A stretch of 64,000 nt of DNA from Leucoraja ocellata (taxonomy: Eukaryota). The notes under the pieces are model-generated. The model was given only the letters and a program-made list of their open reading frames with translations. It searched no databases and was not told where the DNA came from. Positions 4,854 to 51,225 of this stretch are shown piece after piece. The first letter of the stretch is position 1; every line of letters begins with the position of its first letter. The stretch spans positions 930,001 through 994,000 of the forward strand of contig JAWMAR010000293.1 in the NCBI GenBank assembly GCA_036785375.1, given 5' to 3'. A program made the position numbers and the translations under genes.

Positions 4854-5816
4854 GCTGTTTTTAACTGGACTGGTTATTTTCCCATTGAATTATTAACAAC
4901 CCGAGTCACCGGGGAAGATGCACTATTCCGATTTCAAAGGAATACAAAAGCCGCTCCCACTATTCCAGACGCCAACTACCAAAAGTCTTCATGGCAGCCG
5001 AGCCGCTATGGGCAGTCATGCCGACATTCCTGCAACAAGTAGCCAGGAATAGTGACACACTATAATTGATAACTCTAAGGTGGACTTTCAGTCTCATCTA
5101 CAGGACCGCTAGCTTCGCTAATTCCATTGCCTAAGTAGCCGATTGGGGGTCTTTGAAATTGGAGGCTGCTATCTTGCATTCCTCATGTGATTCCCAGTCG
5201 GGACAATGCCACTTGTTAACAGCTCCGTTTATAATGGACCCCACCAAAAATGCTAACGAGACTATTGTCCGAGAGAGTCGCCGGCCACCAGCAAGCGGGG
5301 GATTGGATTCTCGCCTCGGTGGAGGCAGCCAGCGCTTCAGTGTACAGAGAACATTTACCACCCGCTAGGCTGTTGGCTCGGCGGTACATACCTCGCCGGG
5401 TTCTTGAACATTAGCAGCCTGATGATGCCGAATCACTCGCATCTCTGCCTAACGCCCGTTTTATGGAAGCACAGCTGTTATTTTGCCGTGCTTCACCAAT
5501 CACCCCCTTCAAAGTACAAAAACGACAACGGAAAGTCAACATTAATAGGTGTAAATGTAGCGCTCCTTTTGGCACAGTGAGATCGCGCTATAACACTGGT
5601 CATACAAAACACAGTACAGAGTATAATAACGATTTCGTGCCGTAATGGTGTTGTCTAATACCATACGACAATGTTGCAAAACAACGCAGAGCGATGCCAT
5701 TTATTATAGATAAAACTGAACAGTACCATCAAATGTGTAGCGGACAGTGAGCTGTCGGTGACAACTGCCCATAGGGCTGGCCTCCCCGAACACCAGCGGC
5801 CAGACACTAATGTATA

Positions 5817-5852
5817 GGGTCTGAAGAAGGATCCCCACCCGAAACGTCTCCC
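5817..5852 (+). ncRNA. Second hammerhead motif copy; core intact, one mismatch in each of stems I and II
   Basis: GGGT-CTGAAGA-A-GGAT(CCCC)ACCC-GAAA-CG-TC-TCCC, followed by the same PLE-type tail as the 7708 copy. Confidence 0.5.
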
Positions 5853-5919
5853 ATTCCTTCTCGCCAGAGATGCTGCCTGTCCCGCTGAGTTACTCCAGCT
5901 TTTTGTGTCTACCTTCGAT

Positions 5920-6280
5920 GTAGTACAATAAAATATCATGCACTTAACATAAAGCGTGATATAACAGGGTATTGTACAATACAACTGATGCTACACTGTG
6001 CAAACACGGATACAGTCCCATATATAACACAATGCAAAAATGTAATGGAATATGCCATAGTACGGTGTAATAAAAGTGGACACAATACAGTATATAATCC
6101 CAGAGATATATTGTACAGCAAGATATAATGCAGATCATATTACAGATCAATCATACGATCATGAATTGAATGTATTTCAATGTAATGAAATAGACCGCAG
6201 TGTATTAAAATGCGATGTATACGCATCTTAATGCACAATTAATTTGTATAATATAATATAATACAGCTTAAAGTGTACTG
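5920..6280. repeat. Degenerate AT-rich low-complexity tract with short-period ATACA/GTATA-like units
   Basis: Recurring ACAAT/ATACA/TGTAA pentamers. The Tyr/Cys/Ile-rich ORFs here are compositional artefacts. Confidence 0.5.
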
Positions 6281-7707
6281 TACTAATTGGCAGTAGAGTT
6301 ATTGGAAACAACAGAGTTCCAGTGAGAATCCGACGCTGTTCCCAACTGAAGCACGGGCGCAGGGAAAAGCAGTTCTATACACTCATGCAGGCAAGCTGAA
6401 ATGTTGGCAGTTCTCTCAGGAACATTGGAGTTTAAGGGAAGATCCAAACATAATATTTCGTGGCGAAAATTTGCTTCGTGGCGAATTCTTACTTCGGACG
6501 GTTGATGAGTCTCTGGAAGGGAAAATTTTTTTTTTTCTCGCAGCAGGCGGTCAGAATTTAATTTTAAATCACGTAGTTGATGTTCGCAAGGTAAAATACG
6601 AAAGCGGTAAACACGATTCAATCTCCGGTGCAGCAGCATCTATGGAGCGAAGGCGGTTTGTTCACCGATGAGCTCCATAGATGCTGCTGCACCCGCTGAG
6701 TTTCTCCAGCAATTTTGTGTACCTTCGATTTTCGTAACCATAACACATGATTACATCTCCAGTTGCAGACCGGGCAGCGACAATCGGCACATTAATCCCT
6801 GCCTGCAGGAGAGAGTGTAATATTCCAACAACAGAACATTGTTGGATATTAAAACACGTTACTGCGGTGACAATCGTTATATATAATAATAATAACAATA
6901 ACTAACATGTGTGTAACTATAAAGCACAAAGTAAAGGCGGCGCCGAACAGAGTAACACGGCGAATTATTGCGGACAATCGTTTAATATTTGCATGGACTG
7001 AAAGAGCACATTTGCAGCAAAGACACGTTCTGTTCATGGCCTTACCGCCGGCGGGTTCTGCAACACGAACGGATTTACAAATGAGCGTTTTAATGCACAT
7101 AACTATCTATTTGTGAATTTGGTTCAATGTCGAGCTCTTGGATTGTCAGCCTGGCGTAGGCTGGTGGAAGATGGGATCCAAGGGTCGCGATCACCCCTTC
7201 GGTCGACTGCTCGCAGGCAGCTTAATGCACTACTGACAGACCGCTGACTTTGAAATCAACTGCTTGGGGCGGCTCTATTGGACATCCCCATTTGCCAAGG
7301 GGTAGGCAGCTCTGACCTGGTCTGTACTACTGGATTGCTGCTACACATTCCGGACATGCCTCTGTCCACGGATGTCGAGGGGGGGGTGAGGTGTGAGTAG
7401 GGCCGGCGATTTCCCTGACCCCTTCAAACATCTTCAGAGTGGGAGGTAGGCGTTCAGTGACTCACTATATTTTTTCATTGTAAACCGGTTCTACCCATGG
7501 CCCGGGATCTGTCAACGTGCACCGACAGGATGCTGTGCTGCGATTTCCGGAACCAAAGTGTTGTGACTTCTAACCGCAACAATCCCGAGTCACCGGCTGC
7601 AAGGAGCGAGTGTCGGGCGGGAATTAACTCCACACGGGCAGCGAGCTCCACTCTCGCTGTCGGTGACAACTGCCCAAAGGGCTCCAGGCCAACAGCGGCC
7701 AGACACA

Positions 7708-7743
7708 GGGTCTGAAGAAGGGTCTCGACCCGAAACGTCACCC
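7708..7743 (+). ncRNA. Minimal type-I hammerhead ribozyme motif (Penelope-like-element associated)
   Basis: GGGT-CTGAAGA-A-GGGT(CTCG)ACCC-GAAA-CG-TC-ACCC: stem I GGGT/ACCC, CUGANGA and GAAA cores, 4-bp stem II, palindromic ACGT minimal stem III, GUC cleavage triplet. Confidence 0.7.
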
Positions 7744-7899
7744 ATTCCTTCTCTCCACAGACGCTGCCTGTCCCGCTGAGTTACTCCAGCATTTTGTGTC
7801 TATCTTCGGTGTAAACCAGCATCTGCAGTTCCTTCCTACACAACACAGATCAGTAATACTCTGTGGATGAGCTTTGTGTAAGCGGGGAGGCATTTGCAA

Positions 7900-8440
7900 C
7901 CACGGGGGCGGATTGGAGACGTTGTTTTAGCGCATGGAGTGGTTGCTGTGAAAAGTAGGATCACGTTAAGTGTGGGGTGGGGGGGGTTGGGGACTGGATG
8001 CGAACCTGGCGCCGGCAGCGAGCCATAGACCGGCTTTCTCACACTGCATCAAAGATACTAGATGCTCCTCTGGTATATTTGCAGTGCGCGGGGCTCCGGC
8101 CCCACAGAGCCACCCACCGGCAACAGGCGGGCAATATCGGGCCAGAGTCCCGCCCAGAGGCGGAGCAAGGCGGCGGCATCCGCTGATCCGCCTGCCGATC
8201 GGCGCACTCATTGGAGGGTGTGCCGAGCCCCGTTGACCATTAGAGGGGGAGCAGCGGTCGGCGGCTCTCGGCACACACAGGGGAAGGCAGGCGGGCAGGC
8301 GGGCAGCGGCGGCACGGTGCACCTCACCCAGCGCTGCCTCTCAGTTGATCTGACGTCGGAGCAAACATGTTGTGGAAACTAGCTGACAACGTCAAGTACG
8401 AAGACGATTGCGAGGTGAGAGCGGCGGCTCGCTGCTGCAA
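7900..8440 (+). promoter_or_regulatory. CpG-rich promoter / 5' UTR of the AP-2 gene
   Basis: High GC and CpG density around exon 1. Inverted CCAAT (ATTGG) near 7912 and at 8210-8214, GC box CCGCCC near 8150, CRE-like TGACGTC at 8351-8357. No clear TATA box. Confidence 0.75.
8367..8414 (+). CDS. TFAP2C: AP-2 transcription factor (TFAP2C-like), coding exon 1: MLWKLADNVKYEDDCE
   Basis: ATG in gcaaacATGt context. Translation matches the AP-2 N-terminus (human AP-2gamma MLWKITDNVKYEEDCE), with SUMO-type VKYE motif. Phase-0 donor GAG|GTGAGA. Too short for the ORF track. Confidence 0.93.
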
Positions 8441-9862
8441 CTTGCGGGGTTTGAATGCTCTTTAAATCTTGGTCTGAAGAAGGGTTTCCACCCATTCCTT
8501 CTCTCCAGAGATGCTGCCTGTCCCGCCAAGTTACTCCAGCGTTTCGCGTCTATCTTTTAACTTTGGAGAGACCTCTTCCCTGTAGCACTAGACAAGTGCC
8601 GAAGTAAATTTCGTTACTCAAGTCCGCCGAACCAGGGTTATCCTGTTAAGTAAAGAAACGCCAGGAACTATTTGAGAAGTTTACATCACCTTTCCCTAAC
8701 CCCCCCTTCATCGCCCGTGCCCCCAATTCATGCCCCTGTATTAACTAGTGTCCGTAGACTTTGTGGTTTACACTAGTCAACCACTCTTGCTTAACTAGAG
8801 ATTGGGTTTGGACTCGTTCGCGTAGTTACAAATCCCTTGCTGCTCCAGGGGAGATCGTGGATAATTCTGAGATAAGGATACACTGAATGAAGCTGCAAAC
8901 GGGCATTGGCGACTGGACCCGGTGACGTTAATTTTGGATCTGGGGTCTGAGTGCCGAGAGCGCTACCTGACGGCTCTGTGGGGATTCACTCTGGTGATAC
9001 CTGTGCAAGGAAACAAAGGCCAGAAATGACACCCCGGCTCCTCCCCGGGGGACAGGAAGGCGCATCGCTGAAGTGGAGATTCGCAAAACAGACCGACTTC
9101 AAACAAAAGAGATTGAGATGCTGGAATCCGGCACAAAACATCAAAAAGCTGCGAGAACTCAGCGGGTCAAACAGCATCTGTGACGGCGTTCAGGATCGGA
9201 GTCTCGACCTGAAGTGTCGACCTTCTTGCCTCCACGGATGCTGCTTGACCCGTTTTGTTTCCTGGCAGACGTCACGGTTCAGAGTGGTGTGACAGGGCTA
9301 CACGCGAACGTTCAGCGGAGAGAGGGGGTTTTAATGCTCTATCTAGTTTTACGCAGTCGCTCGAATGCAATGCACATCCACTTGTCAGTTAGTAGGGGTT
9401 GTATCTTCACATCAGGAAATCGTCCTGTTTGGTTAGAACTTTTATCTGGAAGCATTTGCGCAATTTCAACGAAGCGAGACTTCCTCCAGAACCCAACCAC
9501 GCGGCGTGTGTCCTGGGCCCGACCTGGTCCCCTTTCTCTCCTCGGCGCTTTATGTTCTTCGTTTAAAAGCCGACGGCACTAAACAGTCCATGACTGTGTG
9601 TCGGTCGTGCGCCGTGGAGCAGCCAGGTTGGCATTGTAGCCCCCTCCCTTCCCCTCCCTTGCTCCCATTAACTCAAGGTAGTGCTACATAATGTGGACGT
9701 TACAGACCTCCATCCTGCTCGGAACGTCGAACACATTCTCCACACACTGTCCTTGCAGCATTGTGTTTGCATTGACTCTCATAGCCTTGTCGAAACCCGC
9801 GGGACTCTTATGGTGCTTGTCATGGAACTGCTGTCTAGTGGAACCGGCCACTATTTCAGCTC

Positions 9863-10054
9863 GAATGTACAAAAAAAAAATGCTGGAGAAACTCAGCGGG
9901 TGCAGCAACATCTATGGAGCGAAGGAAATAGGCAACGTTTCGGAACGAAACGTTGCCTATTTCCTTCGCTCCATAGATGTTGCTGCACCCGCTGAGTTTC
10001 TCCAGCATTTTTTTTGTACCTTCGATTTTCCAGCATCTGCAGTTCCTTTTTAAA
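9863..10054. mobile_element. PLE-derived foldback (family B), intron 1
   Basis: Arms centred on TTTCGGAACGAAA. TSD-like CACTATTTCA(G/C)CTC at 9849-9862 and 10055-10068. Confidence 0.85.
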
Positions 10055-10666
10055 CACTATTTCACCTCTATGTATTTGAACCCCCCTGTACAGAAAGTGC
10101 GCCTATGTTTACATTGATCCAGAATGTGTACACGGTCTATTATCAGATGCTGCACCTGATTTCACATTCTGGTACAAATTTACAACTTTCTTTTCTTTTT
10201 AACTTCATGGTTCAAATATAAACATTCGAGAATATGGAATTAGTGCTTCGATTTTTCTCTCGGGAAATATCTTGGGCATTTTTATTTCGCCGTAGAATTC
10301 AGTAGTTGCACACCAATAGCTGCAATAATAAATATCCCTGGTTAATGGTTCTTGTTGCTAAAATTCGGCTTTAAACTAATTGGATGCTTGGTTGTGGAAA
10401 TCAGCAGTGATCTACAAAAGCCGATTAGAAATGATCAGTCAGTGTTCGCGAATTTCTAGTGGAATCTAGTGGAATCATGAACTATGATTAACGCGGTAAC
10501 AAGCCATTTCGGTCTCCGGGGCACACTGTAATGGAGGCTGTTACAATGTGATTATTATTGTGCTATGCATTGTTATTGAACGTAGGGCCATTAAAGTTCC
10601 GAGTTGTGACATGAGCAGGCGTGTTATTTTGTTTTGGGAGATTTTAATTTTGATATTAGAAACTTC

Positions 10667-10917
10667 AGTCTAGAATTTAGAAGATTGAGGGGGGATCTTA
10701 TAGAAACTTTCAACATTCTTAAGGGGTTGGACAGGCTAGATGCAGGAAGATTATTCCCGATGTTGGGGAAGTCCAGAACTAGGGGGTCACAGTTTAAGGA
10801 TAAGAGGGAAGTCTTTTTGGACCGAGATGAGAAAATCATTTTTTACACAGAGTGGTGAATCTGTGGAATTCTCTGCCACAGAAGGTAGTTGAGGCCAGTT
10901 CATTGGCTATATTTAAG
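10667..10917 (+). mobile_element. CR1 fragment in intron 1. Further CR1 3' pieces at ~2296-2510(-), 3030-3305(+), 12555-12800(-), 27628-27815(+), 35930-36900(+), 42000-42180(-), 42200-43530(+), 52690-52900(-), 56030-56250(-), 60540-61560(+), 62480-62880(+)
   Basis: SLEFRRLRGDLIETFNILKGLDRLDAGRLFP peptide and CR1 3' UTR motifs. Confidence 0.75.
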
Positions 10918-11119
10918 AATATTAACTCACAATATTTAGAGGTACAGCAGTTAAAATGAACGACCCCGAGCAACCTTTCTTCCTCTTAATTATCAACGGT
11001 GCCCAGGAATGAAAATCAAAAGTAGTCATGTAGACAGCGGAAATCTAAACTAAGAACAGGAAGTGCCGGATAAAATGGAGGTTATGCAGCGTCTGTGGGG
11101 AGGGGAGAGGATCGGTTGA

Positions 11120-11249
11120 TTGTGTTTAAGAAGGAACTGCAGATGCGGGGAAATCGAAGGTAAAAGCGAGGGAAATAGGCAATTGCCCATTTCCCTCGCT
11201 CCATAGATGTTGCCGCACCCACTGAGTTTCTCCAGCATTTTTGTCCACC
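11120..11249. mobile_element. PLE-derived foldback (family B, internally deleted), intron 1
   Basis: Same family sequence. Flanking AGAGGATCGGTTGA (11106) and AGAGGATCAGATGA (11250). Confidence 0.75.
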
Positions 11250-11509
11250 AGAGGATCAGATGAAACATTTGAACCAGCGCAGCAATAGATGCGGACACAG
11301 GGACTGTGCCTTTGTACAAGTAGCAGGGTTCAGGTGAGCGTGAAGAAGGTCGGCACCTCTCCGTGTTCTCCAGAGATGCTGCCTGACCCGCCGAATTACT
11401 CCAGCACTTCGTGCTTGTTATTTTGAATCAACCCTGTATCTGCAGTTCCTTGTTTTCCCGGGGTGCAGGATGGTCGGTAACCGGAGTTCTGTTTGTCTCT
11501 CTCCCCCAG

Positions 11510-11953
11510 GACCAACACGATGGCAGCAGCAACGGGACCCCTCGCCTGCCGCAGCTCGGGACTGTCACCCAGCACTTGTACTCCGCAGCCCCTCCTCTGT
11601 CTCACACCCCGAGCTCCGACTTCGGGCCACCCTACTTCCCCCCTCCGTACCAGCCCCTGGCCTATACCCAGTCCTCGGACCACTACTCTCACCTAAGCGA
11701 CCCCTACTCCCTCAACGTGCTCCACCACCACCCGCAGCAGCAGCAGCAATCGGGCTGGCCGGCGCGCCAGGGACAGGAGACGGTGCTCTCTCATCACCAG
11801 CGGGTCAGCGCGGCCGCACACCTCTCGGCGCTGGAACCCAGGAGGGACATCCGCCGCCCAGACATCCTCATCCCGGGCCCTCACCACATGGACACGGCGC
11901 TGGTGGAAAACCTCACCATGCACGACGCGGTTCACGCGATGGAGGAAGTGCAG
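11510..11953 (+). CDS. TFAP2C: TFAP2C-like exon 2, proline/glutamine-rich activation domain with PY motif
   Basis: Acceptor ctcccccag|GAC, donor CAG|GTAAAC, 444 nt within ORF 11411-11974. Encodes DQHDGSSNGTPRLPQL...PPYFPPPYQPL...MEEVQ. Confidence 0.96.
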
Positions 11954-13510
11954 GTAAACTATCTGCTTAAGTAATGGCCTTTGAAATATCTTTGAGAACA
12001 TCTGAACAAGAATTTCAGGTTATTCCCGAAAGGGAATCGTTTCAAATTCGCCCATAATTGTTGATTGCAACAACTACAGGGCGGCTTCGGTAGAAGGGCT
12101 CACACATTCTCAGCGAGAGACACTGAAGTCCCGTTCTCGATTTGGAATGTAAATATAGTCCTCCCGGTAGAACGAGTGCAGGTTGATTTGGCGATGGCGG
12201 TGTGATGAGGATTGAGGGATGGGTCAGAGAGAGAGAGAGAGAGAGAGTTCACGGTAATGTGTTTAATGTGTGTCCTGCTCGAACACACATTAAAAAGCAC
12301 AGAGCTCCCACTAAATCAAAGGCAAACGAACCTCTCACAGAGTGAATGAAACGGGTCTCAATGACAAATCGGAAACTCGTTTTACACGAAAGTGAAGTAA
12401 ATCCTCCTCAAATCGCTAGAACAGCAAATTCTAACGTTTACCACATCAACTGTGTACCAATCTGCCTTTCCAGACTACAATTTAACACCCATAACAGCCA
12501 ATATTAACAGCAATGGCTTATATCTATTTTGACATAATTGATCATGAAATGACCGTCATTGGAGTAGGCCATTCGGTCCTTCAAGCCAGCACCGCCATTC
12601 AATGTGATCATGGCTGATCATCCCCAATCAGTACCCCGTTCCTGCCTTCTCCCCATATCCCCTGACTCTGCTATTTTTAAGAGCCCTATCTAGCTCTCTC
12701 TTGAAAGCATCCAGAGAACCTGCCTCCACCTGAGGCAGAGAATTCCACAGACTCGCCACTCTCTGCGAGGAAAAAGTGTTTCCTAATCTCCATTCTAAAT
12801 GGCCCATTCTAATCCCCATTCTAATCTTCTCGCTTTAAGCCACAACATTTGTTAAATGCTACTGTTAAATTAATTCTGTGTGTGGAGGCAGGTGGTTTCA
12901 CACCTGACTGGGATGTATGGATATATATATATCACCTGCCTTCACACACAGAATTAATTTAACAGTAGCATTTAATATATATATATATATATTGATACAA
13001 ATACATCGATAGATACAAATACATCGATAGATGCTCCTGAACACATCATCATTGATGTAACCTGGGGTCATTGGGTGTTTCGGTCTTTCAACATCAGACA
13101 ACCTCACCCAGGCGACCCAGCCGTGGTTGATCATAATATATATATTAACACGAGATGCAACAGTTAAACGCGAGGCAGTGATGGACTGGAAGTTGTTAAA
13201 GGCCGGTGGGTGGGCTGGGGAAAAAGGGGTTTGCTCCGTGCAGGGGAGGGGGGCTGGGGGGCTGGGTGGAAGGTGGAACGCACTTTTATCACCCCTCACA
13301 TGTGGGGTGTGAGGAGGGCAAGGGTGGTGTGGAAACACTGGGCAGCCTGGTGTCACCCAGTACTGCGCCAAGTACCCACATTTCTGGCCACGAACGGTCA
13401 ATTAACAGTATTCACTCCATACTCCATATATATATATATATACCCTTTTATATCTTATTCTTGATGATTTAAATACCAGAACACGCCAGAGTGCTTGGCG
13501 AACACTGGCC

Positions 13511-13776
13511 GTTTGTTCACTGCCTTTCATCAACTAAGGCATTATTTGTGTTTTTTCTTGATTCCTTTAGCATCTAAAAAGTTTCAGAAGTGATTAATCT
13601 GGCTGTAATTTTTTTTGATCGCTCATGGTTCCCATGGGTTTTTACATACAAAATGAAAACGCATCTGAAGAAAAATTAACAGCCAGAATGATCACTTCTG
13701 AGAATTTTTAGATGCCAAAGAAATCAAGAAAAAACACAAATAATGCCTTACTGTTGATGAAATGCAGTGAGCAAAC
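13511..13776. repeat. ~105-bp-arm inverted repeat, probably part of a non-autonomous DNA transposon extending to ~14093
   Basis: GTTTGTTCACTGCCTTTCATCAAC-TAAGGCATTATTTGTGTTTTTTCTTGATT... mirrored by ...AATCAAGAAAAAACACAAATAATGCCTTACTGTTGATGAAATGCAGTGAGCAAAC. Confidence 0.8.
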
Positions 13777-14197
13777 ACGATAATCCCCAATATTTTCAAT
13801 GTTTACCAAGCACTTTAGCTGCTGTAGTCCCTTCAGTTCTCGCTTCTCTACACCTTCATTTCGCTTCACGTTTGGAATTCTAAAGTTGGGTATATGTCTC
13901 TCACACTTACCCCGACTCCCACAATTTTTTTCGGCTCAAAAATTCAACATTTTGGAGATTTCTAACAGGTAGGAAAGTATGCGTTTCTAGCATTAATAAC
14001 ATATACCGGAAGTGACGGATGTCTTCCAGTTGGATTTAGCGGCTCCGTGCGTCGAGCCCTATGACCCAGTGACCTTTCGTGCAACCACCCTATAAGGGGG
14101 AAAGGCTGGATCAGACACAGGCCGCCAGGTTCCGGGCAGCGGGGGGTGATCGCAGCTTGGAGCCGCCCTTTACACGGTGATTTTTGTTTATTTACAG

Positions 14198-14249
14198 CAC
14201 GCCGAGGACCCGAGCATGCTCATACAAGACCATGGGGTGATCAGGAAAG
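14198..14249 (+). CDS. TFAP2C: TFAP2C-like exon 3 (HAEDPSMLIQDHGVIRK+G)
   Basis: Acceptor tttacag|CAC, donor AAAG|GTAAGA. 52 nt, ending in the AP-2 D..VIRKG motif; phase 1 matches exon 4. Confidence 0.93.
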
Positions 14250-15829
14250 GTAAGAGTGGCCGCCGCCAGCTTAATTACAAACTCCAGCCTGGCTCCAGCC
14301 AGCCGGTACAGACACGCGGGACCAACCAACACTCCAGCTCCACTCGTTACCCCAGCGTTTGCCAAGCAGCATTAATGAGCAATTCACCACATTGAGGGAT
14401 CCAGTTGGATCTGGACTGACAGGAATTGCCTTGCTCAGTCCTGGACCTGGTCTGACCATGGCTCGTTTCCTGGAAGTCGACTAGTTTTACATTATATTTA
14501 GATTCCCCCTCTTCCCAAAAGTTGGGTGAGGACCCTACAGGCAGCCAAATGGCGCAGGGAGTGGAGCTGCTGCCTCACAGCCCCAGAGTCCCGGGTTCGG
14601 TCCTGACCTGGACTGCTGCCTGTGTGGTGTTTGTATGTTCTCCTTGTGACCGCAAGCATTTTTCTCTCCCACAACCCAAATATGGGACATTGAGACACAA
14701 GAGATGCAAACAAACTTGCGGAGGAACCCAACTGGTCAGGTAGCATCAGTGGAGGGAAATAGACCGTCGAGGTAGGGGATGGAGACTCTTCTTCAGACTG
14801 AAGGGCCCCAACCCTAAAAATGCCCTCTGTCCATTCCTTCCACAGATGCAGCCTGACCTGCTGAGCTCTTCCTGTGATTTTGCTTTCCTTTCGGTGTTGT
14901 GCTCTGCCAGCCCGAGTTTGCACAGTTTGCCTGTTGGAGTCAGGGCTTTTTTGCACAGCTTTAGTAGGGGTCTGGTTTGTGTGAGGATCCTGCTTGATTT
15001 TTCTCCAATACAAGATTGAGGTTTAGTTTGGTTAAATAAATTCCAATGGCGTACTGCAAAGAGCAAAGCGTCCTCTCAGCCTCTGCAACTTGTTCATCCA
15101 TCCGGGTGAACCTAGAGGCCACTGGCTTTAATAGGACACCGCTGAGAGCAAGCCTGGAATAAAAGAAAGGTGTTGAATTTGGCATTTCTGAGTTTCTAAT
15201 TGTGGCTGTGTGTGTAGAATTAGTTAATCAATGTTGAAGAGTTTTCACAGTGGTGCAGGAATATGGTAAACTGAGATAATATACTCCCCAGGTAACCAAT
15301 GGTGAGAGTGTGGCTGTGGGATTTTCCTGTTGAAATCTCTGGAAACTGTCAACCAAGTACTTGCCTTAGTCTTACTAGTCAGAATCGGATAGTATAGTAT
15401 AATATAGGAAAATGCTTAATCTGTTATAAGATGGTAACACTTTCAGGGGTAATTTAGTGTGTAATTTAAAAAATAATTTAGTGTGGTGGACTGGTTGTAG
15501 GACATATCAAATATGGTTTCAAATTGCCTCTAATCAATTCTTCCTCTCAGTTGTTAAACCAATGGATGGATCATTTATACTTCATTTTAGTGTCAGTGTT
15601 ACGAGGTGGGACCATGATTCTGTCTACGTGAGCAATAAAGTTCTGCTATTTTAGGGAAGTTCCAAAATACTTTACAGTCTATGGACCTTGTTCGTTTGCT
15701 GAAGTACAGCAGATTTATGCTGCCACTTTGCAACCTGTGTTTCCATATTTCTCTGACTGCGATGGTATTAATGCCTCTTTGAATAGGAGGTATCACTACT
15801 TCATTAATAGCATCAATGTTAACTTGTTT

Positions 15830-17150
15830 ATCTAGAATATAAAAGTTGGGGCATTATGTTACAAAGCACTGATTGAGCCACACTTGAATATTGTATGAAA
15901 TTCTGGTCGCCACTCTAAAGGACCGATGTGATTGCACTGCAGAGGGTGCAGAGGAGATTCACCAGAATGTCGCCTGGATTGGAGAGCTTTAGTTATGAGG
16001 AGTGATTGTAAAGACTGGAGGTGTTTTCCCTGGAGTGGGAGGTTGATGAGTGACCTGATAGAAGCATGTCAGACAATGAGCAACACAAACAGGTAAATAG
16101 TCCAAATATTTTATATGTGGGCAGCACAGTGGTGCAGTGGCAGAGTTGCTATCTTACAGCGCCAGGGACCTGGGTTCGATCCTGACCATGGGTGCTGCCT
16201 GTATAGAGCTTGTGAGTTAAGGGTGAAGGAGAGAAGTAGGAATTCTAAAAGGGGATGTGAAAAGTGAAAGTTAAACACAGTATTGATAACTTGAAAGCAT
16301 TTCCAGGGGAGGTGGTCGAATCAGGTACAATTACCATGTTTAAAAGGCATTTAGATAGACATTTACATAGGCAAGGCATGGAAGGATCTAGTGTTAATGA
16401 AGGCAAATAGGATTAACGTAATGGGCATAAATGTCGGCAAGGACACAGTGGGCCGAAGGACCAGTTTCTGTGCTGGACGATTCTACAAGTTTATTGAAGA
16501 TAGACAAAAATGCTGGAGAAACTCAACGGGCACAGCAGCATCTATGGAGCGAAGGAAATAGGCAAAGTTTCGGGCCGAAACCCTTTTCCTTCGCTCCATA
16601 GATGCTGCTGCACTGGCTGAGTTTCTCCAGCACTTTTGTCTACCTTCGATTTTCCGCAAGGCTCGGTGTTGGGACCCCAGTTATTTACAATATATATTAG
16701 CGATTTAGACAAGGGAATTAATTATGACATCTCCAAGTTTGTGGATAACACAAGCTGGGTGGCAGTGTGAGCTGTGATGAGGATGCTATGAGGCTGCAGG
16801 GTGACTTGAATAGGTTTGGTGAGTGGGCAGATGCAGTATAATGTGGACATATGTGAGGTTATCCACTTTGGTGGCAAGAACAGGAAGGCAGATTATTATC
16901 TGAATTGTGTCAGATTGGGAAAAGGAGAAGTGCAACAAGATCTGGGTGTCCTTGTGCATCAGTCACTGAAAGTAAGCATGCACGTACAGCAGGTAGTGAA
17001 GAAAGCTAATGGTTTGTTGGCATTCATTGCAAGAGGATTTGAGTTTAGGAGTAAGGAGGTCCTACTGCAGTTGTGCAGGGCCCTGGTGGGACTGCACCTG
17101 GAGTATTATGTGCAATTCTGGTCTAATTATTGCTATTGCGGGAGTGCAGC
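15830..17150 (+). mobile_element. CR1 fragments (old copy 15830-16480 interrupted by a SINE head; RT fragment 16655-17150)
   Basis: QGSVLGPQLF and CEVIHFGGKN...HLEYYVQFWS motifs with frameshifts. Confidence 0.8.
16496..16655. mobile_element. PLE-derived foldback (family B) abutting a CR1 RT fragment
   Basis: Inverted arms around TTTCGGGCCGAAAC. Confidence 0.75.
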
Positions 17151-20100
17151 GTACTAAAGCAATGGCATTTAGTGTAGATGGTTTCTTCCAGATGTGAGAC
17201 TGGTGATTGTTGCAGTTGATGCTATTTGCTTTGGACTGAAGATAGTTTAAATGATTGAGAACTTTGTATCGTACAAGGTCAGCATCAACCTTTGGTCGGA
17301 ACCCATTCGCAATTTTGTGTCCCTGTCATGGTTTATAATTGATCTACAATGAGCCGAACAGACCTGATTAGAAATTCAATGACATTATTTTCATAGGTAG
17401 TGTATAATACCCTAATGCAACCATGTTGCACATTTAGTGGCACTGTCTGGAAGGAGTTACCACATTGCGATGCATTTTTAAAATTCCTGGCACCTAGCAC
17501 AAGTGCAAGCTGCCAGATCCCACAGATGCGACTTTCTACATTGAGGTATGTTGGATGAGCGGTTGACAATCATTTGTTCTCCTTTGAATATCAATTACGC
17601 TCGGATAATTAGTTACCTCAGAAGTCAGAGCAGGAGCGTAGGCAATTTGGCAAGTCTGATGTGATCTTAGGACAGGCTGCTGAATGATAATCCTGCTTCT
17701 GAACCAGCTCACCCACAGCTACCTGCCCGTTCGAGTCTGCATCCTGGTAGAAATCCTGGGGATTAATTTTTCCAGCCCGTATGTGCATTAATGTTTTGCA
17801 GGAATGTACTGCTGGTTTGTGGCTGCTGGGGCCAGTATTTGCTTAACTGCATTTTAAAAAAAATACTAACAACATCCTATGAAAATGATAATATTTGGTG
17901 GTTTGAGAATAATTGATTCCCACAAATATCAATCCGTTTCAATATCTGGCAACTTTTATTACTAGCTAGAAACTTGGGGTATCCTGTACTAATTGTCATC
18001 ACTGATTTTTGCAATGTCATTTTATCCACTCTGCTCTAAACAAATTGCATTGTGGAGCAACCTCCCCCTTGAACTGGTGTGACTGTGACTGCTTGCTTAG
18101 TCACGGCAGCATCAATACTTTTGATAGTTGTTGTCAGCTCTCCTCACCACTCAGACTGTTTTCTCTACGTCTGACAGATGTGACAGTAAGTCTATCCAAT
18201 ACTGAGTGAGCAGTTCCTTGATCCCTGCTGTATCAGTCTGTGCCAGAATCTCCAAAGCTATTAAACTTTGCTTGGATTGAAATCAAAATCATCTTGTCAT
18301 GGTAACATGCCCATCAGAGATATATTTCTTGTCGTCAAAGTTTTGCTGTATTCAAATTTAGCAGAATTCCATGATTATTGCAGGCTTCTAGGTTTCCATA
18401 AAATTGTAATCTCAAATCGTTGCTCTCAGCCTCTTCAAAACGCCACATCACAGAATCTGTGCAGTGATCCTCCTCCTCCCGATCCTCCCAGCAGCTGAAA
18501 CACCTGTTGGAAAACTGTGCTTACTGCCCTGATTCTGAATAGTAACACTTGCAGCACCCTAGTTCAAAACGTGTGCAAAGCATTATCTATAATTAGATGT
18601 TTGTGGGAACACACAGTGGAATCCATCTTGGGCTTTGAAAGTTGTGGGCCATTGCGTAATGTAGACCTGTGGCTATATCTACAATTCTTGGCAATGGTAG
18701 AATTGTTTGATTCTCGGATCTGTGGTGTAGCATTTTCACGGCTCAGTATTATCCATGAGATGGAAACGAGGAACTGCAGATTCTGGTTTGCACAGATAAA
18801 TGGACACAGAGTGCTGCAGTAACTCAGCGGGTCAGGCAGCATAATCGAACATGGATAGGTGGCGTTTTGGGTTGGAATCCTTCTTCGGACTGCACCCCTC
18901 TTCCATCTGAAGAAGGGTCCCGATCCAAAATGTCACCTATCCATGTTTTCCAGAGATGTTGCTTGACAGGCTGGGATACTCCAGGATCGTTTTCAGTTAC
19001 GATCAGTGTTCTTACAGGGGTTATGTTCTGTCAGGCCAGGCAAACCAAGGTTTCCTTCAAGCTGCTGGGGTATGGAATGTGTTGGAGTGGATTTACTGCC
19101 TTGCTGAATATGATTCAAAGCACTCCCTCAACTTGTCTAAACATGTCACTGAAGATTTGGATGCTCTAGTATTGAACACTCCTTGGTTAGTACCTTGAGG
19201 TAATTGCCTGTGTTCTATTACTCCAGTACCTAATGTCAATGCCCATGCAGTGGTTGTAGAATATTGCATTCATAATCTTAAAGGTTCAGCATACCTCTAC
19301 ATTTGAATATCTTCTGATGGGAAGTCTAGCCAAAATCGCTGCATTTTAAACTTTGTTTGCTTGCATCGGGTATCGTTGGAGTTTAACTACTTTGCCATGT
19401 GCATTCATTTTAATTGATATCTTTAGGAGCTCTCAGACACCTGCTTAATGTAACACATTGGAAGTCATCCATACTGACTTTGATGACAAAGACTTATTTT
19501 TGTCCTTGGTTTATCTTCTCTTGCTAGATGTCTGTGCACAGACTGTTGTTTACCACAGCATTTCTATGCAAAGCTGTTGCTCTTTCTGCATTTCCACACC
19601 TTCCCAAAGAATGAGGACAGTTTTGTTTCATGAAATACTTCCCTCCCATAGTTCAATCACGCTAGAGTCTTTGCACTGTGGTCTGGGTCCTGATGCTTAT
19701 CTGCGCTTTCTCTGACATTAATTATCACACTCTCATTCTGTCTCTTCAACGTAGGGAAGTCTTTGTGTTGCTTTACAACCCAAAATGCCTCACCAGCCTT
19801 TATGAAGTTTAAATTAGCCACTTGAAGCAGTTTCTTATAAAGTTATACAGCTTTGAATCAGGTCTTTAGGTCCATCATGTCTGTGCTAACCACCAAGCAT
19901 CCCTCTTTGTCACAAACCCTCATGTAGCCATTTAACCCCCCCCCCCACCCCCCTCATTCTTTTCAATCTTTTAACCTACACGTCCATAGTGTTGGAATGT
20001 TCCTTCTGGATTAATGGCATCAAACAAGGTGAAGATTTGCAATGAAAGATGCAAAATGTTGGAGTAACTCAACAGGTCGGGTAGCATCCCTGGAGGACAT

Positions 20101-21719
20101 GGATAGGTGACATTTTGGGTCAGGACTGCTCCAATACTGGTCTTGTTTCATTGACACCTCGTCTGTGTGCCTCTCTCAGCACCCCCCCCCCCCCCCTCCC
20201 TCTCCCCCCTCCCTCTCTCCAGTAAATGTTTAAAACAGTCACTACCACTAGGTGTCAATATCTCCATGAAGAGAGGCATACCCATACCCTGTGCTGTATG
20301 AAATCAATATTTCACAAGCGTATAAAATACCAAGTTAACACCAAGTGATTAAATTTGTGGAAGGCCACAGGTTTACTGTTTTATGGGACCTAATGCAGGG
20401 AGAGAGATTTATGGTCTGGCTAACCAACACAGTTGTAGAACGGCAAATATTCACCCCATTGAACACTCCTAATGTTACACGTCCCCGCAGTGTGGAAGGA
20501 CAATCCAGTGTGGTTCAGGATTGAGTACCTGCACTCCTGACATGTTTGGGTACCGGACTCTGTGTTTACATTACCTGAGCTGTCTCGTATATACACAGCT
20601 CTGCCCTGGTCCAGGTTAGTAAAAATCGTTTCCAGTAGCCCAACAAAGTGGGCAGCTTTGGAAAGAGGGAGGTTGGAGCAATGAAGTTGTGTGGACTGTA
20701 ATTGCTGGGGTGTTCTTTGTGTTTAGAGCACGGGCTTTATACTTGAATAAAAGATGGGAAGTTTCCAAGTTGATGATAATTGGGATCAGATTTGCAATAT
20801 TGATAACCACTGATTATTAGAGGCTTCTCGAAGGAAAGGCTACATTTGTAGGGGATACTTTTTCCCTGGTGAAGAACTTTTCCATATCCCAATGTTTAAA
20901 CGTTGCACCCAGCGAAATAGTTCGCAACATTTTGTCAGACTGCTCTTTCTTTCGAAGTGGCCTTGTTATTCCTTTAAGCGGTGTAACAAGATTGCCAACT
21001 CAAAGAGAAATGATGAAAACAAAACAGCTATTTAAAATGCCCACACTAATCCATTCCCCATCAGTTCTGATGACTTGTTTCCACATTGATCTTCCATTCT
21101 GACCCTGTAGATGTACACTGAACAACATGATTGTAAGTATTGTCTTTTTGCTGACTAGATAGCATGCAACAACGAAGCTTTCCACTGTACCTTGTTACAC
21201 GTGACAGTAAATGAAACTAAAGTAAACCTTTCTAACATTGCTGAACCATAGCTGTTGTTCTTGAGGTGCTGTTGGGTTGAAACCCTGAACCATTGTAGCA
21301 GCTGCAATCTTCATCTACAATGCCAACCTCCATCCACAATGTTGACCCCCCCCCCCGCCTGCTGTTCTCCATCTCTTATATGAATTCTGATATAAACAGC
21401 CGAACTGCCTCGCTCACTGTAGTATTACTTTCAGTACAAAGGTGCAGGACAAACGGAGAGGATCCTGTACCAAAGAGCTGTGATCTCTGTTATGCTGTTG
21501 CTTTTACCCAGCCAAATATAACATTTACGTAATGAGTCTGATTATATGAGACCGAGGACTACAAAAGTGTTAGATTAGGGGCTGTCATTTGTGTTTTGAC
21601 TGTATGTCCCTTTCCAAGAAATGGCCAGTGATCGACTCAGCAAGTACAGACAGCAGAGGTGCACACTCTACACATAAACTATGGAATCACATAGACTGGA
21701 AGACTGGGAGATCAGGTGG

Positions 21720-22146
21720 GGATAGGCTTGGCAATCGCTTCGCGAACACCTCCGCTCGGTTCGCAATGACCAACCTGATCTCCCGGTGGCTCAGCACTTC
21801 AACTCCCTCTCCTATTCCGAATCCGACCTTTCTGTCCTGGGCCTCCTCCACGGCCAGAGTGAGGACCACCGGATATTGGAGGAGCAGCACCTCGTATTCC
21901 GCGATTGGTCAGTTTGTACCCCAGCGGTATGAACATTGACTTCTCTAATTTCAGGTAGTCCTTACTGTCTCCTCCCCTTCTCAGCTCTCCCACAGCCCCC
22001 TGGCTCCTCCTCTTCCTTTCTTTTCCCCACCCCCCACCCACCCTCACATCAGTCTCAAGAAGGGTTTTGGCCCGAAACGTTGCCTATTTCCTTCGCTCCA
22101 TAGATGCTGCTGCACCCACTGAGTTTCTCCAGCATTTTTGTCTACC
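21720..22146 (+). mobile_element. Penelope-like retroelement 3' fragment (degenerate GIY-YIG endonuclease C-terminus, 3' tail and mutated hammerhead)
   Basis: Frameshifted RLGNRF(A)EHLRSVRNDQPDLPVAQHFNS..SDLSVLGLL...LEEQHLVF...GMNIDFSNF, then a pyrimidine tract, CTCAAGAAGGGTTTTGGCCCGAAACGTT and the tail shared by the foldbacks. Confidence 0.8.
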
Positions 22147-25100
22147 ATTGATATTGAGTTTAGTATTGGTATTACTATTGCACATATCGAGATACAGTTT
22201 TGAGTGCAAATCGTACCATATATAAGAGTAGAATCAATCTATTCATGAGGGTGATCCAACGGGTAGTGCAGAAAGTGAATGGAAACCGAGTTCAGAAAAG
22301 CAAGATTGCAGGGTTCTGTCCTAGACCCCCTCCGTGTATCCACTTAAAGTCTCCATTCACCACATCATAATCTGTAGTTACAACTGCGACCTTATTTCAC
22401 AACTTCACCAGCAGCACCCAGCAGCTCTTGGTAGTCCACTTGGTTTGAATCTAATAGTTCACAACTTGTCTTAGTCAATCGTTTTTGCACATTGTCTTCT
22501 TCCTGCTGTTATCTCCTGAGTTCCCTCTTCTGCCCCCACAGTGTTGGAGAACTCCCTGTACCTGGAGTGCTGCCTATGTAGAGATGTAATCTGTCGTGAT
22601 GGGTCCCAATACTCCAGGAATCCAAAATGCTCCCCCCTCCCCCCTACATTGTACCGTCCTCCAATATTCACGACTTTTTGACACTGTTTATCAAACACAT
22701 TGCTAACTTTTGAGGGCCTGTTTCTTGATATCTTGCCCAGCTCCTTCCATTCTACCTGTATTACTGATCAAACATAGGCCATGAACCCTATCAGCTCATC
22801 TAGGACTTTCCTGTACCTTGCCTTGCTGCTGCTGATGGAGTGGTTGTTATAGATGGTTGGTTTGCTGTGTTGTGTTTATACTTTTGTCTGAGATCATTGT
22901 GTTGGGTGGGGTACGCCTTCTGGGTCAGCAGCTCTCGTCTTGGGTCAGGCTTTAACTCCTAATTAACATCACAAAGCCACTGCTGGTGTTCTGTATACCT
23001 TGCAGGCTAAGGCATACTCTGAACTAAAGCAGCACAGGTTAACCCTTATGAGTATTGAATAGCTTTTGTAACTTACATATTTGTTAACTAGCCAAGCCCT
23101 TTGTTTATTGGGGCGGGCAGCGTCTCTGGAGAGAAGGAATGGGTGATTGGGATAATACGCCAAATCCTGTCTCAGGTAAAACTTAAAGTGCTGGAATAAC
23201 TCAGTGGGTTAGGCAGCATCTGTGGAGGGAATGGATAGGCAATGTTTCATGTCTTCAACTTTTCCTTTCGTTATATCTCAGCTTGCTCTATTTGGTATTA
23301 GACAGCAAAGCTAAATGCAACGATAAAACAGAAAATGCTGGAAATATGCAGCAGTTCAGGCAGTATCTGTTGGAAGAGAAACATTACAAATTCTGAAACC
23401 AGAAATTCTGAAACATTAACTGTTTCTCTTTTCACATTCACTGCCTGATCCCAGTATCTGCAGTATTTTTTTTTAAAAAGGCATGTTGGCGAGATTTTCA
23501 ATTGAAATCTAAATTGGAGGATGAACCTATGATGTAGAAAATCAAGGATGAATCGTTACCTGATCTTATCTGCTATAGACACAAAAGGTCACTGATTTCC
23601 AGGCTACCAGGAATCAAGGGCTGAAGATGCAATCCGTGCCCTGTGTGTAAATGGACATTGTTTGCAGAATTGCAGGGTAATTCTCCCACTGTCTTACTGA
23701 TCACACTTTAGCCGAACGCAACTCTAGAAACAAGACATCATACTTTTTCTCATTGCTGTTTCTGGGGCTGTGCTGAGTAATAATCTTCAGCGTTTACAGT
23801 AAGAACCGTCAAATTTCATTAAGACGGTGGAGCAAGAGACTGGAGATGCTGGATTATTGAATAAAAACAAACTGCTGCAGTAACTCAGACTGCATCTGTG
23901 GGAGAAATGAACAGATGACATTTCAGGGTGGGACCCTCCTCCAATCTTCAGCAGTTTGGTTTTCTCACTCACAGACGCTGACTGGCCCACTGAGTTTCTG
24001 CAGCAGCTTATTTTGAGTATCAGCAATCGTTCAAAAGAAGGATCCCAACCAGAAACTTCATCTGCCAGTTTCTCCCCCCCCCCCCCCCCCACCTTTGGAT
24101 GCTGTCTAACCTGCTCATTTTCTCCAGAAGTTTGTTTTCAAAATAATTTCTTTACTTTTCCCTTTATAAAGAGTCTAGATAATTTAGGGAGCAGAAAATA
24201 TTTCTATGTAAACTTGTTTCTATTCCACTTGAGCTTGCGTGTGGATTAAATCATTTCTGCAGGCATGCCTGGGGTCCTGTCCTTGTTTGTCACTCCGAGA
24301 CCCCTGCTGTAAAGTGTGCTTTACATGACTGCCACAGAGTAAGGGTTGCGCTCTGCGATGCTGCTGCAGTTAAGTAACCCAGAGCTCATTGTCAAAGCTT
24401 GCTCATCAGAAACCCTCCAGGTGCCTGCAACCTTTAAGTCAATAGGGACACTTCAGAACATTGCCCACGACTCCTTCAATCATGGACATTGTTCAAAATT
24501 CAGGAATGTCCAAAGTCTAAGACCAGGGGTGGCACAGTGGCATGTCTAGTGGAATCGTTGCATCAAATCACCAGTGATCTAGGTTCAATTCTGTCCTTGA
24601 GTGTTATCTGTGTGGAGTTTGCACGTTCTCCCTGTGACGGTGTGGGTTTCCTTCAGGCATGCCAGTTTTTTCCAAAACACTTGCATGTTAGTAAGCTAAT
24701 TGACCTCTGTAAATTGACCAAGGTGTTTAAATGATTAGTGGGAAATGGAGGAAGTTGTTGAAATATGAATCAAATCAATGGTATTGGCGTGAGATAAGTG
24801 TAAATGTGTATTTGATGGTCAGTGCCGACTCGATGGGATGAAGTGCCGGTTTCCCTGTGTATGACACTCTGGTCTTGTGAGCAATTGATTGATACACACC
24901 ACCTAATGGAGAATCTCTGGATGCAGAGATATTTGGGGTGAGAGTGGGAGGATGCCCTGAGAATGGAGCTTGGAGGTGGAGGACGGGAGGGGAGAAGTTG
25001 GGAACAAGCAAGCATAGTTAAGTTCCAAGATCAAGGGATTTGGATGTATCTTGGATCTGCGAGCTCTACCAGAAGGACACTCTAAATGGTGCTGTTTTAG

Positions 25101-25524
25101 ATGAAACTGCTATGAGAGCACGTTGTTCTGCCACCCCTCTTGGGACAATATGTCCTTGGAATGCAAGTGCTCAGGAGAGAATGCTGAGAAGATTCACAGT
25201 CATTTAGTTTAGTTTATTATTGTCATGTGTACCGAAATACAGTGAAAAGATTTTTAGTTGTGTGCTGTCCAGTCAGTGAAAAGACCTTGCATGATTACAA
25301 TCAAGCTGGCCACAGTGTAAAGTTCAATTAAAGATAGTCCAAGCATCTCCAATGAAATAATATAGTAGGTCAGGACCGCTCTCTCGTTGGGAATATGATG
25401 GTTAGGCTGCTTGATAACAGGTGGGAAGAAACTGTCCCTGAATCTGGAGGTTTGCGATTTCACACCCCTGCACATCTTGCCTGATGGGAGAGGGGAGAAG
25501 AGGGAGTGACCAGGGTGAGATGAA

Positions 25525-26300
25525 TGAATGAATAAGTTTATTGACCAAGTGTTCACATACAAGGAATTTGCCTTGCTACTCCGCTCGCGAGTGACAACGA
25601 CATACAGTGACAGTTAGGAATGACACATAAAGCATTAAACATTAATAATAAATCATTATTGATTAAACATGTGAATTAAATAAAATACCAGAGCAAAAGG
25701 AGGCTACAGATTTTTGGTTATTGAGTAGAACTACTACTCGTGGAAGAAAGCTGTTTTTATGTCTGGCTGTGGCAGCTTTGACGGTCCGGAGTCGCCTTCC
25801 AGAGGGAAGTGATTCAAATAGTTTGTGGCCAGGGTGAGAGGGGTCAGAGATGATCTTGCCCGCTCGCTTCCTGGCCCTTGCAGTGTACAGTTCATCAATG
25901 GAGGGAAGGTTGCATCCAATGATCAGACGATTCGCTGCAGCCTCCGGATGTCGTGCTTGGTGGCTGAGCCAAACCAGACCATGATGGAGAAGGTGACAGA
26001 CTCTACAATGGCTATATAGAATTGGACCATCATTGCCTGTGGCACATTGTGCTTCCTCAGCTGCCGCTGGAAGTACATCCTCTGTTGTGCCTTTTTGACT
26101 GTGGAGTTGTTGGTAGCCTCTCATTTAAGGTCCTTGGAGATGATGGTTCCTAGGAATTTAAAAGACTCCACAGATGTGACTGTGCTGTTATTGATGGTGT
26201 GTGGGGTGAGCTCTCCTAAAGTCTACTATCAATTCCGTTCTCTTAAGAGCATTGAGCTCCAGGTTGTTGCAATGGCACCAGGCCGCCAGCTGTGTCACTT
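25525..26300 (-). mobile_element. Rex1/Babar-like non-LTR retrotransposon 3' fragment. Related pieces at ~4400-4580, 21100-21225, 25200-25520, 26360-26700, 39600-39830, 51235-51760, 53750-54020 and 63100-63370
   Basis: Minus-strand frames read KKAQQRMYFLRQLRK...FYIAIVESV...VWFGS and DPSHPGHKLFESLPSGRRLR, typical of Rex1/Babar ORF C-termini. Confidence 0.75.
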
Positions 26301-28234
26301 CCTGCCTGTAGGTGTCCTTGATTATCCTGGCGGCTGTGCCGAGGCAGTGTGAAATGTAGATGGAGTCAATGGAAGGGAGGTTGGTTTACATGATGTTCTG
26401 GGCTATGCCGACAATTCTCTGCAATTGTTTGTGGTCTTGGATGGAGCTGTTTCCAAACCATGCTGTCTACGGCGCATCTGTAGAAGTTAGTGAGAATTGT
26501 TGGGGACATGCTGTTCTTGCTCAGCCTTCTAAGGAAGTAGATGCGGTGGTGTACTTTCTTGGCCATTGCTCAGGATAAATTACAGGTGATGTTTACTCAG
26601 AATATTGGAACTTTCAACCATCTCCAGTTCAGTACTGTCAAAGTGCATGTGGCCACTTTGCTTCCTGAAGTCGATCACAAACGCCTTGTATTGCCTGAAT
26701 TGGAGGATTTGATAATGGAGAGCAGCTTATTCACTAGGCTTGTTATGTCTGGAGTGAAGGAGTCGGGGATGACCTGAGAGAGGTCCAGAAACTTGTGTAC
26801 GGCCGAGATAGGATTGATAATCACAATCATTTGCTCATGGACAGCATGGCTTTCAAAAACTAGAGGGCATAGGTTTAAAATGAGTGTATGGAGTTTTAAA
26901 TGGGATTGGAGAGGTATGATTTTGTAGAGATTGTTCACGTCTAAGACTCGCTGCCAGAGGAGGTGATTCGAGTAAGATACAATCACTATTTTTAAGAAGA
27001 ATTATTCAGGCATTGAAGGATATGGTCCTAATGTGGGCAAATGATTTAATGTACACAGGCAAAAAAAAATGGGATGGACTGAGAGGACCATTTCTGAACT
27101 GTAGGACTATAATCTCCCAGATATAGGGTGCCGGATTGTATATGTCACAATTCTGGAAAACAAACCTAGTGTGCAAGAGAGTAGTGAGTGACACAATCAG
27201 ATTGGAAGTGTTCATACTGTGTTCCACGACATTTCTTCCCCATGATTGTAATGTGAAACAAACAGTGCTGCATGTCTGAATTTTAGGAGGAAGACCATTG
27301 AGATACGCTGGAGGATAAGTATTTGCTGTTGTGTGCTTAGTGTTTGCAGCTGGTAAAACCTGTTAAAAGACACAACTTCTGGCTCCGCATTGTTACATTT
27401 ATCACAGACCTCCCAAGATGTTTCGATCCAATACGTGGAATTTTGTGTAAATCGTACTTTCAGCACCTGCACCTCGCTTCCAGGAATGAGGCGATGTTTT
27501 GGTTTACTTTAGAGAAGCAGTGTGTGAACAGGCTCTTTGGTCCTCCAAGTCAGTGATTACCCCCCCCCCCCCCCCCCCGTACACTATCCTACACAACAGG
27601 GAACATTTTACAACCTTTTACAATTTTACGTGGAATTCTCTACCACAGAAGGCAGTGGAGGCCAATTTGGATGTATTCAAGATTGAGTTTGATACAGCTC
27701 TTAGAGCAAACGGAATCAAGGGATATGGGAAGAAAGCACGAACGGGGTACTGATTTTGGATGATCAGCTGATTCAAGGGGCCAATTGACCTACTCCTGCA
27801 CCTATTTTCTATGTTAACTCACCAAAGCCAATTAACATACAAACCTGGCGTGACAGTATCAAGCAAGTATACAGACTTTGAAGAAGTTCTCCTTTACTAG
27901 TTTGAAGAATGGTCTTGACCCAAAACATCACCCATTCCTTCTCTCCAGAGATGCTGCCTGTCCCGCTGAGTTACTCCAGCATTTTGTGTCTATCTTTGGT
28001 TTAAACCAGCATCTGCAGTTCCTTCTTCTGCAAGTATACAAAGTTACAGGATAAGGGGCCCGTCATTTAAAACAGAAGCACATAGAAATTTATTTTCAAG
28101 AGAATAGTGAAAATCCCTGGAATTCTCTACCCCCGAGCATCTGGAGAAAACCCACGCGGTCACCGGGAAAATGTACAAACTCCATACAGACGGCACCCGT
28201 TGTTAGGATTAAACCCAAATCTCTGGCACTGTAA

Positions 28235-29547: not shown

Positions 29548-29557
29548 CATATAATTA

Positions 29558-51069: not shown

Positions 51070-51225
<156 letters not shown>

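Follow-up and report, generated by a model that had tools for sequence, protein, structure and literature searches.

The window analysed here is a 64,000-nucleotide stretch of DNA from the skate Leucoraja ocellata (GenBank assembly GCA_036785375.1, contig JAWMAR010000293.1), and it contains the gene for AP-2 gamma, tfap2c, a regulator of neural crest and ectoderm. The ATG at 8367 opens MLWKLADNVKYEDDCE, which is identical at 16 of 16 positions to the N-terminus of Rhinoraja longicauda AP-2 gamma. The Pfam TF_AP-2 domain is found in two later exons, and the best named matches are the AP-2 gamma proteins of skate, other rays and sharks. Upstream of the gene, on its sense strand, lies a minimal hammerhead motif. 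Its putative cleavage site, read from the sequence as following C7739, is 628 nt ahead of the ATG, and the original prediction of a motif approximately 630 bp before a TFAP2C-like start codon is thereby confirmed, the gene being tfap2c itself.

8367..54442, + strand: host gene tfap2c (AP-2 gamma), with seven coding exons at approximately 8367, 11507, 14192, 40278, 51088, 53200 and 54150
7708..7743, + strand: minimal type-I hammerhead motif, read from the sequence; the sole descriptor match in the window

Helix I of the motif consists of 4 bp between the 5' strand GGGT (7708-7711) and the 3' strand ACCC (7740-7743). The core CTGAAGA (7712-7718) is followed by an extra A at 7719, placed between positions 9 and 10.1, and then by helix II, also of 4 bp: GGGT (7720-7723), the loop CTCG and ACCC (7728-7731), with G7720-C7731 as the pair G10.1-C11.1. 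GAAA (7732-7735), the palindromic 15.2-16.2 pair C7736-G7737 and GTC (7737-7739) complete the motif. Every element named in the original prediction is thus where it was said to be, and the CUGANGA core, GAAA and NUH of the minimal hammerheads of Penelope-like elements (PLEs) all occur, in type-I order. The model search that had been proposed as a check gave a divided answer. Our own descriptor of the minimal hammerhead, run on both strands of the window, has one match, at 7708-7743; Rfam, on the other hand, gives no hammerhead match over 7200-8300 at E values up to 10, and none over the whole window at the gathering score. One Rfam match, to a microRNA (E 6.1), was dismissed as chance. On 400 dinucleotide shuffles the descriptor matched once when any helix I was allowed and never when helix I had to be at least 2 bp long.

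What the original prediction missed is that the motif lies inside a repeat with 49 copies in the window, and that the outer two pairs of its helix I are foreign to the sequence of that family. BLAST of 7601-7900 against the window gives 45 other matches. With a profile built from eight good copies, the copy that carries the motif (the focal copy) among the seeds, nhmmer finds 49 arms at 30 loci and no match in five null sequences. The arms, of approximately 130 bp, total 4325 bases (6.8% of the window; 26 on the plus and 23 on the minus strand), and their loci occur at a density of about one per 2 kb. The features of this family to which we refer below are as follows.

7711..7842, + strand: focal solo arm of a Penelope-like 3' end (pseudo-LTR); nhmmer E 2.3e-43, the copy itself being one of the eight seeds
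7703..7708, + strand: ACACAG, left copy of a candidate target-site duplication of 6 bp; helix I takes its outermost base from the final G
7843..7848, + strand: right copy of the candidate target-site duplication, ACACAG
5751..5924, + strand: probable local duplicate of the focal copy with 51 nt of 5' flank (81% over 57 flank columns)
8473..8557, + strand: arm of the same family that has lost GAAA-CG-UC by deletion, located in tfap2c intron 1
21741..22153, + strand: longer 5'-truncated Penelope-like copy, comprising a GIY-YIG-like remnant, a spacer and then an arm
42537..42746, unstranded: example of a head-to-head hairpin with the mirror axis TCAG-T-CTGA and a tail on one arm; it folds as one long hairpin at -144.7 kcal/mol

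The focal arm is truncated at its 5' end at the hammerhead core and retains a 3' tail of approximately 35 nt, the motif being the 5' end of the arm. It is a solo copy; at 16 of the 30 loci the arms form head-to-head pairs that fold as long hairpins. Judged by which arms extend to the 3' end of the model, a tail is present on one arm only in 13 of the 16 pairs, the partner stopping short of it, and on both in none. Duplications of 6-12 bp flank seven of the nine inserts examined. At the focal copy, two further G (7709-7710) stand between the left ACACAG and the arm, and the ACACAG pair would match by chance with a probability of about 4% by our estimate (169 offsets x 4^-6). No arm out of 49 starts at 7740; four start within 7738-7743 and 22 at 7712-7715, the latter pile-up arising because the reference began at 7712. 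We therefore reject copies that start at the ribozyme cut site, and the lack of a pile-up of 5' ends there is in line with uncleaved templates. There is no tandem array of arms in the window, and retrozyme-like head-to-tail units are absent; ARAGORN found no tRNA. The CpG-rich first 12 kb hold 12 of the 30 loci (p 0.006, with the boundary chosen post hoc), which could reflect either insertion bias or slower decay. The 5' flank of the copy at 5751-5924 is found nowhere else in the window besides the focal copy (7656-7815), and the common 51 nt could stem from a local DNA duplication or from retro-copying of a read-through transcript; the latter would mean that the focal site is transcribed in the sense direction in the germline. 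In the alignment this copy keeps the core letters, and its helix II and inner helix I pair are broken.

The anatomy of the element is seen in the longer copy at 21741-22153. Here a frameshifted GIY-YIG-like C-terminus (approximately 21741-21955) is followed by a pyrimidine-rich spacer and by an arm with a mutated core at 22053, and it is this copy, not the focal one, in which an endonuclease stands upstream of a hammerhead-bearing 3' end. The open GIY-YIG-like piece of 54 amino acids is 77% identical to the little-skate protein P0001 and 65% identical to a second little-skate protein; both continue into a YIG-T motif, and their Pfam matches to GIY-YIG (E 0.008 and 0.0013) fall short of the curated threshold. 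The region is matched by 49 of 49 homologues. Pfam gives no match to the window piece of 54-68 amino acids alone, and the ESM Atlas returns for it only bacterial hypothetical clusters at 0.80-0.81, which is uninformative. Among 15 of the 58 representative matches, several of which are chimeric or repetitive, Pfam finds GIY-YIG in three, all below cut-off, and no PLE reverse transcriptase. Neither does the window show one, be it by Pfam among 140 of its 255 open reading frames of at least 70 amino acids or by tblastn, searches that short fragments could escape. One of the two little-skate proteins carries a CX4CxxC linker, and the linker is present in the homologues P0002 and P0024; the endonuclease remnants in the window are truncated before the CX2-5CxxC linker, a motif type tied to Neptune-type elements in the available part of PMC8557442. 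P0001 and P0002, both skate 'uncharacterized proteins', are apparently chimeric gene models that end in a Penelope-type endonuclease fragment; the reverse transcriptase part of P0001 matches a separate reverse transcriptase at 29547-30839, and P0001 is therefore probably chimeric. A second, more decayed GIY-YIG-like remnant, of the linker-proximal part, lies at 63506-63675 on the minus strand, with no arm detected beside it. We also note a candidate 98-nt intron at 21955-22052 (+ strand; GT, a polypyrimidine stretch and CAG) that reaches from the last GIY-YIG-like codons to just before the hammerhead. It recalls the intron of Drosophila virilis Penelope, which ends at helix I according to the available text of PMC4209133.

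The GIY-YIG-like remnant, the head-to-head pairs, the one-sided tail and the target-site duplications together support the assignment of the arm as the 3' end, or pseudo-LTR, of a Penelope-like element, and the original prediction was right to link the motif to this group. Insertions of endonuclease-containing (EN+) PLEs, as described in the accessible parts of PMC3846280, PMC8557442 and PMC11167929, share with the skate copies the head-to-head inverted copy, the junction palindrome, the solo pseudo-LTRs, the 30-40 bp tail at one end, the variable target-site duplications and the C-terminal GIY-YIG. They differ in that the skate copies are nearly all just the last 100-130 bp, at roughly one locus per 2 kb, and in that several skate mirror axes lie inside or just before the hammerhead. 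The published minimal hammerheads of PLEs (Cervera and de la Pena 2014, PMC4209133, as far as its text is available) likewise combine CUGANGA plus an extra base, G10.1-C11.1, GAAA, a palindromic 15.2-16.2, NUH and a short helix I, and in metazoans they are mostly single dispersed motifs of truncated elements, with some opposite-strand pairs. The skate helix II, in contrast, is only 4 bp long. No cartilaginous fish is among the 56 rows of Fig. S3 of that paper that we compared.

Helix I of the focal copy departs from that of its family. In the copy at 22053, with its upstream element sequence, and at the mirror axes, the core is preceded by CAG-T or CAG-A instead of GGG-T. Across 15 hand-picked arms of the 49, helix II is paired in 86.7% of cells, G-U variants included, and helix I in 46.4%; the inner two pairs of helix I form in 11 and 8 of 14 arms, the outer two in 2 and 5 of 14. 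The CAG context and the rarely paired outer positions imply that the family motif has a helix I of 2 bp, as do the Culex and Drosophila virilis rows in the part of PMC4209133 compared. The outer two pairs of the focal 4-bp helix are a product of the insertion junction. An origin of the 5' GG as a spliced-in exon end was considered and found no support: when the candidate intron ends at 22053 are joined, CAG again precedes the core.

It could be asked whether the hammerhead is anything but a chance match to a loose descriptor. Rfam is silent, covariation of helices I and II across the same 15 hand-picked arms is not above that of shuffles (366/500), and the bare 36-mer, which does fold into helices I and II, does so no better than shuffles (z-score only 0.07). 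However, the motif is found in 0 of 400 shuffles, agrees with the published PLE consensus in every field and holds the position downstream of an endonuclease that PLE hammerheads hold. A chance origin is already refuted by the family context, and we assign it a negligible probability. Judged by its letters, 7708-7743 is a real PLE-type minimal hammerhead.

The focal motif is the only intact one among the 49 arms. Divergence was compared within the focal subfamily, that is, 12 of the 49 arms, which align over 55 columns or more with an identity of 84% or higher, the other 37 being set aside. Set against the majority sequence of the remaining 11, the focal arm shows 3 differences in 131 positions, and it is the least diverged of the 12 (2/119 at non-CpG sites versus a mean of 6.2%, p 0.02 uncorrected). 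It is also less diverged than the probable duplicate at 5820 (3/131 versus 9/102, p 0.035). Under neutrality, the 27 motif sites would all remain intact with a probability of 0.44-0.58 at the focal rate and of 0.18 at the mean rate of the subfamily. The core has fared no better than the downstream sequence in the other 11 arms: with hand-trimmed ends, 5/75 core sites have changed versus 48/764 downstream (Fisher p 0.81).

The core region includes two CpG sites, and at G12 three of the six subfamily arms covering the position now have A. All six CpGs survive in the focal arm, one of them being a site defined from the focal copy, and the other subfamily arms keep 24 of 47; without the focal-defined site, the comparison with CpGs outside the first 12 kb is 5/5 versus 19/30, which is not significant (p 0.10). 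A copy at 27901, in an intron, has the same non-CpG divergence as the focal one (2/113 versus 2/119) but keeps one of six CpGs (versus 6/6, p 0.015). The observed/expected CpG ratio of the flanks is 0.77 at the focal copy, 0.54 at 27901 and 0.33-0.54 at six intronic loci. The motif appears to owe its intact state to the low divergence of the copy and to its location in a promoter that is rich in CpG and probably unmethylated, where the core CpGs have not decayed. Youth and such a promoter are sufficient for intactness, and selective constraint would also give the low divergence of the focal arm. The arm might, for instance, have been kept for a reason at the DNA level, as promoter or enhancer sequence, with the hammerhead letters riding along. 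This would accord with low divergence across the whole arm and not just the motif (2/93 downstream non-CpG sites) and with the density of loci in the first 12 kb. Both observations, however, are explicable by an open-chromatin insertion bias or by slower CpG decay, and the intronic copy at 27901 is equally young by its non-CpG sites; we consider retention of this kind very unlikely.

Would the motif fold and cleave? In the bare 36-mer, helices I and II are predicted to form together with a probability of 0.18. In seven longer contexts the predicted probability of the hammerhead fold drops to between 1e-7 and 1.6e-2, and during elongation it is at most 0.5%, since the core is predicted to pair with a downstream CCUUCU tract or with the upstream flank; nearest-neighbour folding of this kind ignores Mg2+, tertiary contacts and proteins. 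For the dimer of the 36-mer, the double hammerhead is predicted at -17.3 kcal/mol and the best dimer at -29.1 kcal/mol, a difference of 12 kcal/mol to the disadvantage of the former. As for partners for cleavage as a dimer, the descriptor finds no second intact hammerhead in direct orientation in the 64 kb, and the copies nearby would be defective partners, the one at 5820 having a broken helix II and the one at 8473 lacking GAAA-CG-UC. Single minimal hammerheads gave no detectable cleavage and dimers gave low cleavage in the experiments described in the available text of PMC4209133, and a review agrees, in the part available, on the weak cleavage of minimal hammerheads as dimers (PMC6765202). 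The PLE hammerhead of the anole, according to the accessible part of PMC11167929, required protein in order to cut and was not needed for insertion, and no public RNA-seq reads ended at its cut site. The focal hammerhead, as modelled, most likely never cleaves in vivo.

The promoter context bears on the role that had been suggested for the motif, namely cleavage of upstream-initiated or promoter-associated RNA or the definition of RNA ends at this locus. The interval 7906-8210, downstream of the motif, has GC and CCAAT boxes and no TATA, and the start site of the tfap2c mRNA is therefore probably also downstream. Transcripts that arise upstream of promoters are mostly antisense and would not carry the sense hammerhead. 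Alternative first exons occur among the AP-2 gamma proteins of other elasmobranchs, as they do for TFAP2A (PMC3219183, in the part available), and sense read-through across the motif is possible on this ground; a first exon of tfap2c upstream of the window would place the motif in an intron. Within 1-11500 no convincing upstream coding first exon was found (best score 26 versus self-scores of 59-61). A separate GC- and CpG-rich stretch at 1-500 (GC 0.66, observed/expected 0.84) lies 8 kb ahead of the ATG and could be another promoter or an upstream tfap2c start.

In its strongest form, the suggested role would be that of an exapted hammerhead, extended at the junction, that cleaves upstream-initiated sense RNA and so limits interference with the tfap2c promoter or fixes the RNA ends there. 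The motif is on the sense strand, is the sole intact one in its family, lies in the least diverged arm of its subfamily and has a longer helix I than the family form, and relatives have alternative AP-2 gamma N-termini. Against these points stand the expectation of intactness under neutrality, a predicted occupancy of the fold in context of 1.6% or less, two defective neighbours, a probable mRNA start downstream of the motif and the lack of an upstream coding first exon in 1-11500; we regard exaptation as highly unlikely. Nor is the suggested role supported more generally: the focal arm is one of 49 on both strands, its intactness is expected at its low divergence, the surrounding sequence is predicted to refold the motif, the window holds no intact partner for a dimer, and the published minimal PLE hammerheads are, in the available texts, inactive singly (PMC4209133) or protein-dependent (PMC11167929). 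That skates have kept a junction-improved 4-bp hammerhead to cut upstream-initiated RNA, in an early ribozyme domestication, is in our judgement a highly improbable outcome. If the focal copy did prove conserved and active, it would be a rare adoption of a transposon ribozyme by a host gene.

In our preferred reading, the motif is very probably a passenger carried by a young retrotransposition product that is evolving neutrally at the tfap2c promoter. A Penelope-like element would carry the minimal hammerhead in its 3' end, and uncleaved element RNA would be reverse-transcribed from the 3' tail, with a stop approximately 130 nt on, at the hammerhead core. There the cDNA of many copies may fold back on a short palindrome to give head-to-head hairpins. 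The cDNA of the focal copy would have been joined directly to the target, where the G's of the junction by chance lengthened helix I from the 2 bp of the family to 4 bp, and low divergence together with a CpG-rich, probably unmethylated promoter would have kept the core CpGs. Mirror axes lie at TCAG-N-CTG, just before the core, at four loci (998, 14799, 42625 and 60850, by eye), and at TTTCGG-N-(C/A)CGAAA, in helix II of a second subfamily, at three (4775, 9944 and 51486, with 24-25 of 25 positions mirrored). The automatic finder of mirror axes was reliable (24-25/25) at three of 17 loci, and the remaining axes were assigned by eye. Their recurrence at two micro-palindromes fits fold-back self-priming.

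Non-LTR retrozymes, as described in the available parts of PMC7229834 and a preprint (bioRxiv 10.64898/2026.07.22.740005), resemble the skate arms in being non-coding and PLE-related, in carrying a type-I hammerhead and in occurring also as dispersed monomers; a preprint reports retrozymes in one chondrichthyan. They are, however, head-to-tail tandem repeats, whereas the skate arms are solo or head-to-head. The ultraconserved amniote hammerheads HH9 and HH10 offer a comparison of another kind, as hammerheads at vertebrate genes and a model for domestication. They are low-copy, conserved and canonical, in contrast to the skate motif, which belongs to a young high-copy repeat without an Rfam match. 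Ultraconserved amniote hammerheads are alluded to in PMC7229834.

Thousands of such motifs per genome occur in fish, coelacanth and frog according to the available text of PMC4209133, and with a locus every 2 kb each gene of the skate genome has one close by; the focal find as such therefore matters little. The family extends the minimal hammerheads of PLEs to a skate, and we found no description of it in the literature searched, a search outside which lay Repbase, Dfam and most subscription papers. Its abundant short hairpin copies allow fold-back at hammerhead micro-palindromes to be tested as the origin of inverted Penelope 5' ends, and allow one to ask whether uncleaved RNA is the template.

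Other repeats were seen in the window. A 431-amino-acid open reverse transcriptase fragment lies at 29547-30842 on the plus strand, in tfap2c intron 3 (Pfam RVT_1, E 2e-28), with several 3' fragments elsewhere; we take it to resemble a CR1-type LINE. Dispersed repeats of approximately 300 bp with a (TTTAG)n end, for example at 40641-40946, presumably resemble the elasmobranch HE1-type SINE. A minisatellite at 28376-28615 consists of 12 copies of a 20-bp unit with 95% matches.
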